Positions 9,001 through 15,000 of a stretch of 33,828 nt of DNA are shown here, in pieces. Made by a program: the position numbers. The stretch comes from Candidatus Xenobia bacterium (lineage in GTDB: Bacteria; Vulcanimicrobiota; Xenobia; Xenobiales; QWHO01), in the NCBI GenBank assembly GCA_045863235.1, contig BTUM01000085.1, forward strand, positions 1 through 33,828. The letters are read 5' to 3'. The stretch's first letter is position 1; the number at the start of each line of letters is the position of its first letter.

Positions 9001-12000
9001 CTCCAGGTGAGCGCTGGCCACGAGCAGCTCTTTCGTCAGGCCCTGCCGCTGGCCTTGCTGGGTCGAGCTGAGCTCTCGCCTGATTGCTTGCAGAAGCTTT
9101 CCTGGCTGGGCTTCAGCACGGTGGCCAGCTTGCTGGGCCTGACCCGGGCCCAGCTGCAGGCCCGCCTGGCGGAAGGCGAGCGGCTTTACTGGCTGAGCCG
9201 CTGGGAGGACCGTCGCCCGGTGCCGCTCTACAGCCCCCCTCTCGAGTTGGAGTCTCGCTGGGCGCGCGAGGAAGAGCTCGATGAGCTCGAGCCGGTGCTG
9301 CGCCACTTGCTTGGCGAGCTGTTGCCTCGATTGGGGACGCGTCGGGTCAGCCGGGTCACGGTCGAGGCAGGCTCGGCGCGGGCCCGGCGTTACCTGCAGA
9401 GCCCCACTGCCCGTCCTGGCCCGCTCTGGAATGCCGTGCTGAGAGCAGGTCAGGAGGTTCTGGCTGCCTGCCGCGAGCGGCCCGACGAGCTCGCTCTCCG
9501 GTTGGGCGGTTTGCTCTCGCCACCGGCTCGCCAGGAGCTGCTGTTCGCTCCTGATCGACGCAGCTTGCGTCCAGAGGGGTTGCAGAAGGCGTTGCGCCGC
9601 CTCGAGGCGCGCCTGCCGGGCCGGCTGTTCAAAGTAAGCTACCACAACCCCGAGGCCTACCTGCCCGAGGAAGCCTGGACGCTGGAGCGCCTGCAACCCT
9701 CATGAGGCAGGTCATGGAGCCGATCGAGGTGCGGGTGGAGGCCGACGCTTTGAGGGCCTTTCGCTGGCGTAGACGGGTCTATCCCGTGGAGCAGATCCTG
9801 GAGAGCTGGATTTACCGGGGCCGCTGGTGGACCGACGAGCGTCTGGCCGGCGAGCGGCGGGTCTACTACCGCCTCCTGGCCCGCCGGGGCAGCTATGAGC
9901 TGTATCGCTCCGACCGCCAGGGCTGGGTGCTCAGTCGGGTTCTGGATTAGGGCGAGCCTTGTTTTGAGCGGCCCCAGGATGACGGGCAGCGAGCTTGCGG
10001 TTGAGAATTCCTGGATTTGCGCGTTTCTCTCAATGTTTTGAGAATGATGAACAGGGTGAAACTTTTGTTGCCGACATGTTGTCAGGGCCAGCTTGATTCC
10101 TGTTCTGTAAGGATTTGAGTGGCGAATCATGGACACATGATGCTGTCCTTTTGGGTGGGACAGGAAGGAGTCCTGCCCCTAGACTGGTCAGGGTCGGGTC
10201 GTTAAATAGAAGACAAGAATCCAACGGCGAAAGGATCCGCCCGACAATGCAGAGCAAGAACCCCTTTGCTGCGCTATTGCAGACCGTCGATCTTGCTGCC
10301 CGGCTGGCCCGGCAGGTCGACTTCGAGGACGACAATTCGGGCGGAAATTTCAATGGAAATTTTGGATTCGGTGGCAACGCCCCCCAGGTTTCCAACCAGC
10401 CGCGCGAGCTGAACACCAATGACCTGTTCAACGAGTATGAGGAAGAGGTGCTCGAGGACGGGCGGAACATCCGGCGCTACCCCAACGGCACCGTGAGGCT
10501 CGAGAATCCCACCAGCGGGGTGATGCAGGAAGAGCGTCCCGATGGCAGCCTGGTCATCTCCCTGCCGGGAGGCAAGCTCCTCTACCAGCGTTTCGGCGGA
10601 GAGCCCCTGATGGTGCTGGACACCAACGGCAACTCCGAGCCCACCCTGGCCCAGGTGAGCTCTGTCACGATGCCCGACCAGGACGAGCCGGCCCTGATGT
10701 TCCACTTCCAGGACCGCAATGGCACCCACCTGATCGAGATGGAAACCCTGCGTTACTTCAAGGTGCGCCAGAGCCTCTTCGCCGCCGCCTGATCGAGCGA
10801 GTCCCGAGAATCCCCCACGACCCGATCGGAGTCAGGCGGCAAGATCCCTACCAGAGCTGGGCTCGCTCGGCCTCGGGCAGGGCCATCGGCTGGCCTGGCT
10901 CCACCCCGTAGGCGGCCGCAAAGGCAGGCAGGTTCTTGAGCGTCTGGTTGATGCGGAACTCCACCACCGGATGAGGGTCGGTCTGCACCTGCTGGCGGGT
11001 GGCCTCGGGGCGCTGGTTGTTGGCCCACACCTGCCCAAAGCCCATGAAGAATCGCTGCTCGGGCGTGTAGCCGTCCAGCTTGGGTCCGAAGGGCTTGCCC
11101 TTGAGCGAGTTCTGGTAGGCGGTCAGGGCCAGGGTTACCCCGCCCACGTCGGCCAGGGCCTCGCCCAGCACCAGGTTGCCGTTCAGGCGCAAGCCTGGCT
11201 CCACCTCGTAGTTTTCGGCCTGGGCCTTGATGACCCCGGCCCGGTTCATGAACTCCTCGCGGTCGGCCTCGGTCCACCAGTTGCGCAGGTTGCCCTCGGC
11301 GTCGAACTTGGAGCCCTTGTCGTCGAAGCCGTGGGTGAACTCGTGCCCGATCACCATGCCGATTCCACCGTAGTTGATGGCGTCGTCAGCCTGAGCGTCG
11401 AAGAAGGGCGGCTGCAAGATGGCGGCCGGGAAGACGATCTCGTTGTTCTGGGGGCTGTAATAGGCGTTGACCATGGCCGGGGACATGTGCCAGGCTGCCT
11501 TGTCGACCGGTTGCCCGATCTCGGCCAGGTCCTTGCGGGCCGCCCAGGCTCGAATGTTCATCACGTTCTGGCCGTAGACCCCGCGCTCGACGGGAATGTC
11601 GGACTCATCCGGCCACTCGTCCGGGTAGCCCACCTTCACGCCCACGTTGGCCAGCTTGTCCAGGGCTTGAGATTTCGTCTCGGCGCTCATCCAGTCGAAC
11701 GAGCGGATGTGCTCGCCCACGGCTCCGCGGATGTTCTCGATCATCTCCTCGCAGCGAGCCTTGGACTCGGGCGGGAAGGTGCGCTCCACGTAAGCCCGGC
11801 CCAGAGACATGCTGAGGTGGTTGGCGGTGGAGTCGGCCATGCGCTGGTCGCGAGGCTTGCGCCCCTGGGCCCCGCTGAGCACCTTGCCGAAGAAATTGAA
11901 GCTCTCCTCGTCGAAGCGGGCCGGCAGGAAGCTGGCCGCACCGTCCACCAGGCGCACCTGCAGGTAAGCCTTCCAGTCTTCCACCGGGGTCTCGGCCAAC

Positions 12001-15000
12001 TCGCGGTCGAGCTGCTGGAAGAAACGCGGGGTGGCCATGTTGACCGTCTCGAGCGATTCCAGACCCAACCCGTTCAGGTAGCCGTTCCAGTTGAAGTTGG
12101 GGGTCAGGGCCTGCAATTCGTCGCGGTTCATGATGTGGTAGAGGTTGGCCGGGTCGCGCATCTCGGCCTTGGTGAGCGAGGCGTTGGCCAGCCGGGTCTC
12201 CAGGGCCATCACCCGACCGGCCTTGGAGGCGGCCGTGGCGCTGTCGTCGCCGAGCAACTCGAACACCTTGCCCAGGTGCTCGACGTAAGCAGCCCGCAGC
12301 TGGTCGGCCTTCTCGCCCTGGTCCTCGTAGTAATTCTTGCCGGGCAGGCCCAGGCCGCCCTGATAGGCGCCGGCAATGTTCATGGTGCTGTCGTGGTAGT
12401 CGGTCACGCTGCCGAAGCCGAAAGCGGCGCCGTTGCCAGTGCGGTGGAACTCGGTCAGAGTGGCCTGCACGTCGGCGGCGCTCTGCATGGAGCCGATGCG
12501 GTCGAGCAGCGGCTGGATGGGGGAGAGGCCGGCCGCCTCGATGCTGGCCGTATCCATGGCGCTGGCGTAGAAGTCGCCCAGCTTCTGCTCCACGGAGCCC
12601 TTCGGAGCGTCGGTGCGCCCGGCGTACTCCTCCAGGATCTGCTTCTGGATGCGGGTGCTGGCCTCGCGCAACTCGTTGAATCGGCCCCAGCGCACCTGGT
12701 CGTTGGGGATCGGGTTCTTGGCCAGCCAGCCGCCGTTGATGTGCTGATAGTAGTCTTGCTGGGGAGCCACGGCCGGGTTCAGGTTGCTGAGATCGAATCC
12801 GTGGCCGGGAACGCTCTCAGACTGACTCAAGGCGATGTCGCGCAGGGTGGTGAGATAGGCCGCTCCGGCCCCGCTGGCCTGCGGGCTGGTGTGGGCCGTG
12901 ACGGCGGCAGCTTTGGCTGCAGCTCCCGGCTCGTTCGCGAGGGACGCGATCTGGTCGAGGTAGATGTTGGCGACCTGGGCTCGCACGCGCGGGTTGTCCA
13001 CCGTCTCGAGGGTGCGCACTCCGAGCTGGGCAAGCACCACGCTGGCTGGCCCGCTGAGGCTGATTCCCAGGGCATTGGTGGCGGTCTGCTGCCCGCTCCT
13101 GGCCAGGGAGGTGGGGCTGGGAGGCTGGGGCCGGCCCAACTCGGCCTGGTCCACCGGGACCGACTCCTGCGTCTGGCTGGCAGAGGCCGTCTGGGGTCTT
13201 GAGGTCATCGGGGCAATGGACGGGGCGGAGAGGGGGCGAACGAGCAAAGGAGCCTCCAGAATGTTCTTATGGTGGCATTCTAGAGGCTCCGACCGGTCGG
13301 GATGGTTGCCTTTGTGTAAAACTACAGTCGGGGTCGCAGTCGGAAGGAGTCCAGGAAGCGGTTGAGCTCGGCTTCGTCATAGGCGTCCTCGGTCTGGCCA
13401 CCGAGAACCTGGTAGAGCCGGTTCTTGACCAGATAGAGGCGGGCCCTGGCTTTGATCTTCTTGCTGGGAGCCGAGAACACGAGCTCGATGCCCGGGTGGC
13501 CCTCCAGCTCGATCCAGCTCTCTTTCTCGAGTTTGCCCCCGATGTTGCGCAGCGCCCCATCGCGCGCGCCGCGCAGTAGCTCCTTCGCGTCCTTCTTGTC
13601 CACCGCCCAGTCGGGAAAATCGGCGTAGGCCGAGGCGTAGCCCCAGGTACGCCCTTCACTCAGGGCCATGTGGAAGGTGATAGTGCCCACCGCGGTGGGG
13701 ACCTTATCGCTGGACTCCTTGGGGGAGTGGGGCATCTCCACCGAATAGCCGCCCTTGTTGGAGCGGTACTCGGTCCAGCGGGACTGGCCGCAGCCAGCCA
13801 CCAGCAGCGCCATTGCCAGCAGGGCGAGAAGCGGTTTGTGCATCTTTCGTTCCACCTGTCCTTTCAGTATGTGTATATTATACACTAACTGGACAGGGGA
13901 GTAAAGCAGGAAGAGTCGTGGCAGGAAGATGCCAGGCCTCCTCCTCCCGATCTCAGAGCTCGACGGTCAGCCGGGGGGCCTGGCGCTTGAGCTCCTCGAC
14001 CTCGGGAGCCGGGACGGCGTTGCCGCGCAGGTACACGCGACGCAGAGCGGGCAGGGCGCTCAGTCCGGCAGGAAGATGGCTCAAGGAGTTCCCCTCGGCG
14101 CTGAGGACGGTCAGGTCGTGGAGCTCCTTGAGGTCCGGCAGGCTCGTCAGCCGGTTGCCGTTGAGCTGTAACGAGCGCAGCTCGGTCAACAGGTCGAGCG
14201 CAGGAAGCTGGCTGAGACGGTTGCGCTCGAGCAGCAAGGAACGCAGCCTGCGAAGGCGGGTCAGGCTGGCCGGCAGGCTGCTCAGCTCGTTGTCGGACAG
14301 GTCGAGATACTCCAACTGGGTCAGCTCGCCCAGGCTCTCGGGCAGCGAGCCCAGGTTGTTGCCCGAGCAGTCGAGCCCTTTGAGCGAGGTAATGCGGAAC
14401 ACCACCCCGGCATTCTTGCCCAGGGAGTTCTCGGCCAGATCCAGCTCTTCCAGTCGCAGCAGCCCGGACAGGCTGTCGGGGAGGGCTGTGAGGGCGTTGC
14501 TGGCAAGATAAAGCTTTTGCAGCCTGGACAGCTTGCCCACTTCGGCCGGAATGGCTTTCAGCTGGCACTCGCTCAGATCGAGCAGGTCGAGATGAGACAG
14601 CGTGCCGATGCCGGCCGGCACCGAGCCCATCGCGTTTCCAGCCAGAACCAGGCTGTTCAGCTTGGGGCTCTTGAGAGCGGCTTCCGGAAAGGATTTCAGG
14701 CTGTTGTGACCGAGGTCGAGATCCTCCAGGGCCGGCATGGTCGGCACGGAGTCGAGCTTGTTATGGCTGGCCTTGAGGTGGCGAATTCCCGAGATCCCGG
14801 TCGGCAGGGCGCTGAGCTGGTTGCTTGCCACGAACAGCCCCTCGAGTTTCTTGAGGCCGCTCAGAGGGGGCAGGGCGGTGAGCTGGTTGTTGGTGACGCT
14901 CAGCAGGCGCAAATCGGGCAACTGGCCCACCTCGGCAGGCAGAGTGGTCAGCTGGTTGTTGTCCAGAATGAGCACCTGCAGCTTCTTGAGCTGGCCGATC

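Follow-up and report, generated by a model that had tools for sequence, protein, structure and literature searches.

The nearest precedent for the system described here is the flagellin-less flagellar type III secretion system (T3SS) of Lysobacter enzymogenes OH11, a predatory bacterium in which fliC is absent, the export gate is kept and FliI is needed to secrete a protease and a glucanase (PMC7688988). The Myxococcales possess a secretin-less non-flagellar T3SS whose core lacks motility parts; its hosts prey on bacteria, and it has been proposed as an intermediate between flagellum and injectisome (PMC3459982). Export signals have been described for the rod and hook subunits of Salmonella, which carry a hydrophobic signal at residues 2–5 and a gate motif ∼24 residues farther on, with a minimum spacing (PMC8983047), and for the Hrp effectors of P. 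syringae, which are Ser-rich, with residue 3 or 4 aliphatic or a proline and no acidic residue at positions 1–12 (PMC3338616). Our comparisons draw on excerpts of these four papers.

In a genome of the uncultured Candidatus Xenobia bacterium (G000, phylum Vulcanimicrobiota), a survey had found a common N-terminal leader on predicted exoproteins, one of which is encoded in the window, the 33,828-nucleotide stretch of DNA analysed here. The gene (10848..13247, minus strand, as are all window features given below; assigned by ORF and Pfam) starts at TTG and encodes an M13 metallopeptidase of 799 residues, with Peptidase_M13_N (PF05649, residues 162–542; 11622..12764) and catalytic Peptidase_M13 (PF01431, residues 594–792; 10872..11468) domains and an HEFTH motif at residue 635. 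Its leader (residues 1–38; 13134..13247; HMM E-values of 1.2e-7 and 5.2e-6) is Ser/Pro/Ala-rich and non-hydrophobic, has no acidic residue at positions 1–27 and is kept in orthologues. The leader opens with element 1, M-L-V-R-P-L (M-x-V-x-P-L; residues 1–6; 13230..13247), aliphatic at residue 3, passes through a spacer containing R-P (residues 17–18; 13194..13199) and closes with element 2, D-Q-A-E-L-G (residues 33–38; 13134..13151), the local form of D-x-V/F-x-L-S/G. Between leader and peptidase domain lie ∼95 additional residues without a Pfam match (12798..13085), an insert common to about ten nearest homologues. A Shine–Dalgarno sequence, GGAGG (13253..13257), is found 5 nt before the TTG and a −10-like TAGAAT at 13277..13282, and the TTCAG direct-repeat promoter discussed below is absent upstream (matrix score −13). 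A PTP-like phytase that begins M-Q-I-P (2123..3529) is a possible second leader gene of the window; TATACT lies 7 nt 5′ of its GTG, a hydrophobic segment follows after ∼55 residues and its leader match (E = 9) is non-significant.

A separately built HMM recovered the shared non-hydrophobic leader and showed that the survey's count of 82 proteins was too low. We redid the gene calling (7063 genes with crude start sites; 26,402 candidate starts scored) and seeded the model with 17 sequences selected by a regular expression (3.4 expected by chance); iteration reached 140 members and later stabilized at 121–127, and the union comprises 158 genes. At E ≤ 0.01 the final HMM accepts 125 genes versus one shadow-ORF start and no shuffled start in control sets of equal size. 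When members were held out, models built from half of the contigs regained 39 of 62 and 45 of 78, a recovery that is not wholly independent because the members had been chosen by the iterated model. In an HMM-free scan, D-x-[VF]-x-L-[SG] is maximal at residues 21–40 (6.9 and 4.4 per 10^4 versus ∼1). Roughly 160 leader-bearing genes are identified in G000, and the true total is probably 300 or more.

Members start with M-x-I/V, followed by a disordered spacer of 20–25 residues and often by D-x-V/F-x-L-S/G. The elements of the survey's consensus exist, but their strict forms are confined to a minority (28 of the 158 for M-x-[IV]-x-[PS]-[LV], 31 for [PS]-x-D-x-[VF]-x-L-[SG]), and R-P falls inside residues 8–25 in 96/158. 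Element 2 begins at residues 24–35 in 87 of the 97 motif-bearing members (median residue 29; before residue 22 in only three), a spacing that is constant even though mutual column identity of the leaders is only 22%. Both the scarcity of early acidic residues and the lack of a hydrophobic core held up: Asp/Glu in residues 1–15 number 0.33 in members versus 1.35 in other proteins, and the hydrophobic 12-mer within residues 1–40 expected of a Sec or lipoprotein signal peptide occurs in 1/158 members versus 1709/6487 others. Some members do have a hydrophobic segment behind the leader, as reported previously for 27 of 82; at our own threshold there are 34 of 158, with Lys/Arg directly before the segment in 21 and a lipobox in 6. 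An alternative internal start behind these segments was rejected, a Met being available in only 5 of the 34. A Pfam scan of 87 members revealed no N-terminal domain in common, an NCBIfam profile search with five leaders gave no match at E 0.1, and an all-library search with a 44-leader profile returned seven matches, mainly repeats, that are uninformative on range.

The cargo includes dozens of proteases, nucleases and glycosidases with secreted relatives, so the term exoproteins fits part of it, but is too narrow: an aldolase, an AAA ATPase, an ACP, a disulphide oxidoreductase, a rhomboid, and WD40 and SLOG proteins are also members. An exported-type composition is found in 51% of 113 soluble members, compared with 75% of signal-peptide proteins and 22% of cytoplasmic proteins; that about half of the soluble cargo is of cytoplasmic type we count against a type III reading. 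The Cys content of the cargo is 0.64%, versus 0.65% for exported and 1.09% for cytoplasmic proteins. A disulphide pairing bias in the cargo was considered as well and none was found.

The proposal that the leader stands in place of a signal peptide is supported by paralogues, since a signal peptide is present in 1/27 subtilases and 0/16 clostripains, and by the M13 family. By eye, M13 relatives P0001–P0015, P0017 and P0024 begin with the leader (HMM scores of 2–35 bits, several of them weak), and 94 of 106 relatives from P0015 onward have a hydrophobic N-terminus. Two further M13 paralogues in G000 have a signal peptide and a short leader, respectively. A single origin of the M13 leader is unsupported, as leader forms split over clades in a midpoint-rooted tree of 45 sequences with distant homologues sampled every fourth. 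Judged from sequence, the view that the leader is a Sec-independent export tag at the signal-peptide position of relatives is supported.

G000 also encodes a flagellum-derived export apparatus, in a cluster at C27:60.7–79.3 kb and a mini-cluster at C74:1–4.1 kb that stops at the contig edge. The genes specify an export gate (FlhA, FlhB, FliP, two FliQ, FliR, FliO), an ATPase complex (FliH, FliI, FliJ), MS and C rings (FliF, FliG, FliM, FliN), a rod (FliE, FlgB, FlgC and three FlgE/F/G-type proteins), a FliK ruler, a lytic transglycosylase and orf162, a four-helix-bundle-like protein without a named family. The genome therefore contains the intact gate and ATPase that a type III signal calls for. 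FlhA, FlhB, FliP, FliQ, FliR, FliI clade 2 and FliF exceed NCBIfam cut-offs, and FliP passes the broader NF009438; SctV, U, T, S, R, N and J stay below TIGR cut-offs and rod genes are present, unlike in an injectisome. Export and rod genes of a motility flagellum are present, but flagellin, hook cap, hook–filament junction, cap and stator are missing: flagellin, FlgD, FlgK, FlgL, FliD, FlgM, the L ring, the P ring and a MotA-type stator were not found in this 97.6% complete genome, and the sole MotA/ExbB match sits, by eye, in an ExbB–ExbD–TonB operon. Passage across the outer membrane lacks an explanation because the cluster contains no secretin and no L/P ring; three secretin matches lie outside it, two of them in T2SS- and pilus-like operons. 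Five G000 proteins consist of the FlhA C-terminal domain only. A search for CesT chaperones gave no match, with its control likewise silent.

Among 151 genomes of the phylum, FliP is found in 144, flagellin above cut-off in 50 and FlgD in 51. The apparatus thus occurs in ∼95% of sampled genomes, often alongside a true flagellum. The cluster is syntenic in five genomes from four other families, with FlhA 71–85% identical, whereas the true flagellar FlhA of G062 shows only 41% identity. The survey's statement that the leader does not follow the apparatus holds only insofar as the apparatus has the broader range; 22 of 23 genomes of the class with a leader match also possess it. Co-occurrence is no test of the link because the apparatus is almost universal in the phylum. 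Expansion of leader plus promoter is restricted to families f1, f3 and f4, but genera without cargo-wide expansion still have leader-bearing genes within the export cluster.

Many leader genes share an activator-type promoter, TTCAG-N6-TTCAG-N10-TAnnnT, that the survey did not mention. At a matrix score of 14 it lies upstream of 65/158 members (41%) versus 260/6899 other genes; 93 members fall below this threshold. Genes chosen by the promoter alone encode D-x-V-x-L-S at residues 26–35 in 56 cases versus ∼6 expected, so that a DNA motif independently supports the leader. Leader genes are mostly monocistronic. The promoter was looked for before the export-gate operon and not found, and none of the 26 OmpR-type domain matches that we looked at could be singled out as its activator. 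A sigma-28 promoter was rejected, as CGA[AT][AT] is not enriched (14/158 members versus 798/6880 others).

Adjoining flhA in G000, an all-helical, Gln-rich protein of 81 residues is encoded in three tandem copies, and beside them is a longer protein that ends in the same Gln-rich domain. This longer protein of the cluster carries D-x-V-x-[LF]-S in G000 and likewise in G002 and G001. When an HMM trained on G000 cargo was applied to other genera (100 loci with 6910 starts), the top three matches were Gln-rich-domain proteins (25.9, 16.5 and 15.5 bits; shuffled maximum 10.4), a ranking favoured by the choice of loci around Gln-rich genes. Two of the three are encoded ≤4 kb from flhA. Of 26 long ORFs with the Gln-rich domain, only 11 show the strict motif. 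In 3/3 genomes of this genus, the third of the Gln-rich copies has the promoter in front of it, and these are the only positives among 55 copies, none being outside the genus. Both structure models of the protein are a single helix. Its likeness to a pilin is weak: ESM features give 0.91 with clusters in which 23% of members have HrpA_pilin, Pfam HrpA_pilin matches occur in 6/37 proteins, and PDB sequences include no relative. CcdA was rejected as a PDB relative (E 0.25–0.33, chance level).

How does this system compare with those described? OH11 retains flgE, flgD, flgH and flgI, and its system resembles a remnant in a single genus (PMC7688988), whereas the G000 cluster is a separate, conserved system across a phylum. 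The excerpt of that paper lists nine secreted proteins and describes no common leader (PMC7688988), in contrast to at least 160 tagged cargo proteins with a shared promoter and to a candidate filament protein in G000. Like the Myxococcales system, the G000 core has neither motility parts nor a cluster secretin; FlgB, FlgC, FliE, FliG and the needle subunit are absent from the former according to the excerpt (PMC3459982), and because G000 retains the first four it would stand one step nearer the flagellum. The second motif follows the first by ∼24 residues, as in the Salmonella early signal, but reads D-x-V/F-x-L-S/G rather than the FLTLL of FlgD and marks unrelated enzymes rather than a few structural subunits (PMC8983047). 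An upstream-box cargo regulon and a small, multi-copy helical filament candidate recall Hrp and HrpA (PF09589), but Hrp is a secretin-bearing non-flagellar T3SS whose signals, in the text available, have no alignable motif, whereas G000 proteins score as flagellar (PMC3338616); the HrpA matches of the Gln-rich protein are weak (E 0.012 at best). All three P. syringae substrate patterns are shared by 59/158 members versus 306/6487 others, and singly they fit 73%, 80% and 62% of members. These patterns are loose, and composition itself helped to select members. FlgM of four relatives (PF04316; G050, G062, G056, G049), a flagellar type III substrate, has a disordered Ser/Pro-rich start with S/D-x-V/F-x-x-S at a like position; its score of only 0–5 bits on the leader HMM we count against a type III reading, and the cargo, unlike FlgM, has no anti-sigma domain behind the leader.

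The best reading is that the leader is probably a type III export signal in two parts, serving the flagellum-derived machine, with export most likely through a filament- and motor-less device kept phylum-wide. An apparatus without a flagellum, the fit to the P. syringae patterns and to the Salmonella spacing, links to cluster and promoter, absent signal peptides, cargo Cys content, the lack of markers of other systems and the OH11 precedent point in this direction. A winged-helix activator on the 11-bp-period repeat would turn on the cargo genes together with, in this genus, a single gene for the candidate filament. Element 1 would trigger entry, and element 2 would let cargo in its unfolded state dock at the gate, on FlhB-C, FlhA-C or a chaperone. 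Cargo would cross both membranes via the rod, perhaps extended by a short filament built from the Gln-rich protein; exported hydrolases would break down external material or prey, and cargo with a trailing hydrophobic segment or lipobox may, once exported, insert into a target membrane.

Could the leader instead be a functionless by-product of the regulon, its 5′ codons copied with the promoter as a cassette or serving leaderless translation? Leader and promoter expanded in the same families, members are seldom in operons (9/155 versus 2091/6744 other genes) and 228 of 325 promoter-picked genes start 4–10 nt past the −10 box, so starts are mostly leaderless. We nevertheless consider this unlikely: the 93 members without the promoter include the M13 gene with its Shine–Dalgarno sequence, the element 2 distance is constant despite divergent sequences, and a cassette leaves prodomain subtilases without a signal peptide unexplained. 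It is quite unlikely that the leader directs export along some other path independent of Sec, be it a machine not yet recognised, vesicles or a route linked to a T2SS or type IV pilus. The secretins outside the cluster and the isolated FlhA C-terminal domains would suit it, and the alternatives screened were four systems with one marker each; but no T4SS, T6SS, T7SS or eCIS marker (PF04984, PF05943, PF06013, PF03135) was found, with no sheath, VipB, WXG100 or VirB4 in the genome, T2SS substrates need a Sec or Tat signal that members lack, and leaders occur on genes within the type III cluster itself.

A tag for intracellular sorting, chaperone binding or degradation that retains cargo intracellularly, a lytic compartment being one conceivable site, would accommodate the cytoplasmic-type half of the soluble cargo and members such as the aldolase, ACP, AAA ATPase, SLOG and oxidoreductase proteins. 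It is very unlikely given the many hydrolases with secreted relatives, and injected type III cargo is itself frequently cytoplasmic in appearance. ESPR and YSIRK are extensions of Sec signal peptides, and the leader might similarly be an extended n-region that delays or redirects Sec export. The trailing segments, with their Lys/Arg, lipoboxes and rare internal Met, fit this idea, but 124/158 members, including subtilases and the M13 peptidase, have no segment within 130 residues, and we consider it highly improbable.

For the type III reading, a farther-reaching version is possible but tentative: that Vulcanimicrobiota made a second, independent conversion of a flagellum into an injection device, through which large-genome Xenobia send several hundred effectors into prey. 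It is similarly speculative that the device consists of gate and rod without a motor, with a filament of Hrp-pilin-like Gln-rich protein, one activator and an alignable two-part signal, and that part of the cargo bears an additional signal, of Sec or lipoprotein type, to be read by the target cell. To our knowledge, type III export signals generally have no consensus; if the type III reading is true, an alignable two-element signal on at least 160 unrelated cargo proteins would offer a direct test of substrate choice by the gate. The machine would represent an extant intermediate on the way from flagellum to injectisome, nearer the flagellum than the Myxococcales system. The phylum spans a cultured species as well as lineages of the gut and others abundant in the ocean, and 'flagellar genes' in these genomes would be no sign of motility. 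Proteins annotated as hypothetical and hydrolases lacking a signal, hundreds in all, could then be read as a predicted secretome under a predicted regulon.

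The M13 peptidase ORF (799 aa; window 10848-13247, minus strand) begins at a TTG codon preceded by GGAGG and carries in residues 1-38 a leader whose general form is an M-x-I/V start (element 1), a disordered spacer and often D-x-V/F-x-L-S/G (element 2). Gene calling with a hexamer model in the Candidatus Xenobia genome (G000; 8.36 Mb, 66% GC, 97.6% complete), of which the window is C85:1-33828, gave 7063 genes, and all 26,402 candidate starts were scored for this leader. A regular expression for both elements matched 17 starts, with 3.4 expected, and HMM iteration produced 140 members and later 121-127, with a union of 158. 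At E ≤ 0.01 the final HMM selects 125 genes, compared with one shadow-frame start and no shuffled start. The survey's finding of a common leader on many proteins is confirmed and extended to the 158. HMMs trained on half the genome recovered 39/62 and 45/78 of the held-out members. The proposed three-part consensus holds in part: D-x-[VF]-x-L-[SG] has its maximum at residues 21-40 of G000 proteins independently of the HMM, but the full strict form is satisfied in a minority of members, and in many paralogues the M-x-I/V-x-P start is the sole part retained.

The members also share a promoter, which is an addition to the survey's observation. The most enriched upstream 6-mer is TTTCAG, present in 43/158 members and 292 of ∼6900 other genes, with position maxima at -27/28 and -38/39. 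The extended pattern T[TC][CG]A[GCA]-N6-TT[CG]A[GC]-N10/11-[TC]AnnnT occurs at 141 sites in G000, compared with 5-35 for other spacers, and a gene start lies within 130 nt at 128 of them. It is a direct repeat with an 11-bp period, 10 nt upstream of the -10 box, a geometry typical of OmpR/PhoB- or SARP-type activators. A promoter matrix at score 14 is positive in 65/158 members and 260/6899 other genes; among these 260 non-members an M-x-I/V start is found in 52% (background 15%) and a hydrophobic N-terminus in 5% (background 26%). In the whole set of 325 promoter-picked genes, element 2 begins at residues 26-35 in 56, with 5.7 expected; the leader is therefore confirmed by DNA outside the coding region, and the set suggests that 300 or more genes are tagged in G000. 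The -10 box lies 4-10 nt upstream of the start in 228 of the 325. A second, rarer class (..AC-N6-[GT]TCAC-N20-22-TAnnnT; 22 sites, compared with 0-2) stands upstream of nine members. The matrix detects no main promoter upstream of the M13 gene. Elsewhere in the window, a small ORF at 22742-23158 (plus strand) has a weak promoter score (6.9) and a disordered start resembling those of flagellar-type transglycosylase and FliK, and a PTP-like phytase at 2123-3529 (minus strand), which begins much as leader proteins do and has a -10 box of the leaderless type, falls below the leader threshold.

Leader matches occur in the same families of the phylum as the promoter. Promoter sites number 98 in G000, 77 and 99 in its congeners, 11-89 in all 14 genomes of family f3, 15 and 15 in f4 and 12 in f17; f2 genomes have 0-6 and f14 genomes 0-3. 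A control pattern with a spacer of 8 gives 0-6 per genome in the families compared. With up to 48 candidates scored per genome, the leader was matched in 2/2 genomes of f1, 12/14 of f3, 2/2 of f4, 1/1 of f5 and 5/17 of f2, and 114 genomes outside the class yielded six single weak matches.

What the leader is attached to was assessed by a Pfam scan of 87 of the 158 members (67 + 20) plus the M13 gene. The 87 include proteases (nine subtilases, further MAM-domain proteins, C11, C39, C92, M14, M20 and rhomboid), other hydrolases (GHL10, amylase, trehalase, lipase, two endonuclease I and GDPD), a peptidyl-arginine deiminase and PQQ and WD40 propellers, as well as an aldolase, an AAA ATPase, an ACP, a disulphide oxidoreductase and a SLOG protein; 40 have no Pfam match. 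The survey read the leader as an export tag on exoproteins, and this reading is partly supported. A signal peptide is present in one of 27 subtilase paralogues (15 carry the leader, two a weak leader and nine neither) and in none of 16 clostripain paralogues, and the Cys content of the cargo resembles that of exported proteins. However, a composition classifier (AUC 0.84) scores 51% of 113 soluble members as exported-like, compared with 75% of signal-peptide proteins and 22% of cytoplasmic proteins. Judged by eye, a leader opens the 14 M13 homologues most similar to this gene and three others, whereas the N-terminus is hydrophobic in 94 of the other 106; the M13 tree does not tell which of leader and signal peptide replaced the other. 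A hydrophobic segment follows the leader in 34/158 members, six of them with a lipobox and others Gly-zipper-like. With hydrolases, enzymes of cytoplasmic type and proteins that insert into membranes among it, the cargo is more easily understood as effectors than as plain exoenzymes. One leader-bearing protein of 553 aa (contig C66; L020:11888-13546) has a weak, below-cut-off Pfam ATLF match (E 2.9e-5) and probably adopts a zinc-peptidase-like fold.

G000 encodes a flagellar-type export machine. Contig C27 carries flgB, flgC, fliE, fliF, fliH, fliI, fliJ, a transglycosylase gene, fliK, fliM, fliO, fliP, fliR, flhB and flhA, together with two fliQ genes in tandem and a pair of fliG-like genes (C27:64796-65385 and 74318-76130), a short FlgE/F/G-type gene and two fliN; contig C74 adds FliK-like and FlhB-C-like genes, two rod genes, a gene for a rod-binding protein and one for a sigma factor, the last truncated by the contig end. 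The cluster proteins pass flagellar but not injectisome TIGR cut-offs. Flagellin, FlgM, FlgD, FlgK, FlgL, FliD, FlgA/H/I and MotA were not found in G000. These absences are more than a gap in the G000 assembly: among 151 genomes of the phylum FliP is found in 144, whereas flagellin exceeds its cut-off in 50 and FlgD is found in 51. Two or more FliP matches, which are not copy numbers, were read by eye from the tables in 48/50 flagellated genomes and 12/94 others. Gene order is kept in five other genomes (G002, G032, G056, G046 and G001) with FlhA 71-85% identical, whereas the FlhA that belongs to the flagellum of G062 shares 41% identity with that of the cluster. True flagellar clusters of some Xenobia (L068-L070 in G062; L067 in G050) are patchy, occurring in one of three genomes of the genus and 6/14 of f3, and distant from the conserved one, suggesting that their history is separate. 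The f14 cluster (L074-L077; G093 and G033) is reduced, more diverged and flagellin-less, and lies beside recR and dnaX-region genes.

Conserved orphan helical proteins lie in or near the C27 cluster (41934-43622, 52244-52744, 53791-54279, 57162-57476 and 79799-80167) and are chaperone candidates; among them are orf104, which adjoins flhA and is 32-50% identical in other genera, orf122, divergent from flgB, and orf162. Five scattered proteins have, of FlhA, the cytoplasmic FHIPEP (FlhA-C) domain alone (C80:28012-29436, C3:26973-28175, C1:377631-378872, C106:14866-16857 and C107:13658-15829, the last with a FliG-like beginning by eye) and may serve in sorting, as platforms, or in regulation.

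A small Gln-rich protein (81 aa), predicted to form a single helix, is encoded in three identical copies downstream of flhA, as is a longer one of 473 aa that has this domain at its end. The 81-aa query has nine matches in G000 and is present in 44/151 genomes, with no match in f14 or f18; flhA lies within 4 kb at 21/75 Gln-rich loci of a species collection. The likeness of the small protein to the HrpA pilin is a lead only. Homologues of the domain without flhA nearby occur in records titled Desulfitobacterium (L175:3980-4246), Blastocatellia (L179:3860-4141), Pirellulales (L183:3854-4177) and Acidobacteriota (L173:3431-4165).

Several observations suggest a link between leader and machine; the mere co-occurrence of the two says nothing on it, since almost every genome has the gate. 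An HMM trained on G000 cargo alone ranked Gln-rich-domain proteins at the top of 6910 starts from 100 loci of other genera, which had been selected around Gln-rich genes and from which seven considered congeneric with G000 had been removed beforehand; these proteins make up five of the top ten, the first three exceed the shuffled maximum, and L135 and L154 also encode flhA. Element 2 occurs on the long cluster protein in three families. Each of the three genomes of the genus has one Gln-rich copy with the promoter in front of it, and no copy elsewhere has one. Substrate patterns from P. syringae, in the available excerpts of PMC3338616, match leader proteins seven times more often than others, and the two-part Salmonella rod/hook signal, as excerpted from PMC8983047, has a similar geometry but a different second motif. 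No markers of eCIS, T6SS, T7SS or T4SS were found in a search with one marker for each.

The most likely interpretation, and one we regard as fairly probable, is that activator-driven leaderless genes supply cargo that passes, by way of elements 2 and 1, through the flagellar-type gate and rod. An activator would switch on a large number of monocistronic genes, most of them leaderless; the unfolded product would be recognized through element 2 and then element 1, and would cross the gate and rod, perhaps guided by a filament that the Gln-rich protein forms, to be either released to the medium or injected.

The window also encodes, on the plus strand at 7878-9950, a LexA-like gene, then a gene whose 380-aa product has no Pfam match and by eye resembles an inactive Y-family polymerase accessory, and a small ORF, which together read like an SOS-type cassette. 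On the minus strand are a leucine-rich-repeat protein (13953-15212), a chlorite dismutase family protein (21768-22601) and a copper oxidase/cytochrome c protein adjoining an SCO1 gene (26125-27450).

The open literature on this lineage with flagella or type III, a coverage outside which most subscription papers and the Xenobia-defining paper fall, yielded no paper on the leader, promoter or cluster as a distinct system. For Ca. Eudoremicrobiaceae the excerpted parts of PMC9259500 describe a diversity of secretion systems, enzymes of degradation and a predicted predatory life, and its table, as excerpted, lists two fliI/fliP clusters and a TXSScan 'no_decision'. A cultured member of the phylum is diderm, without flagella or a flagellin gene, according to the available portion of PMC9758169; in the portion of PMC13277936 the phylum does not appear under 'Eremio'. 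The nearest precedents, judged from partial texts, are the flagellin-less system of Lysobacter OH11 (PMC7688988) and the NF-T3SS of Myxococcales (PMC3459982). The G000 system would be a flagellar type III machine put to another use, with a regulon and with cargo marked by an alignable signal.
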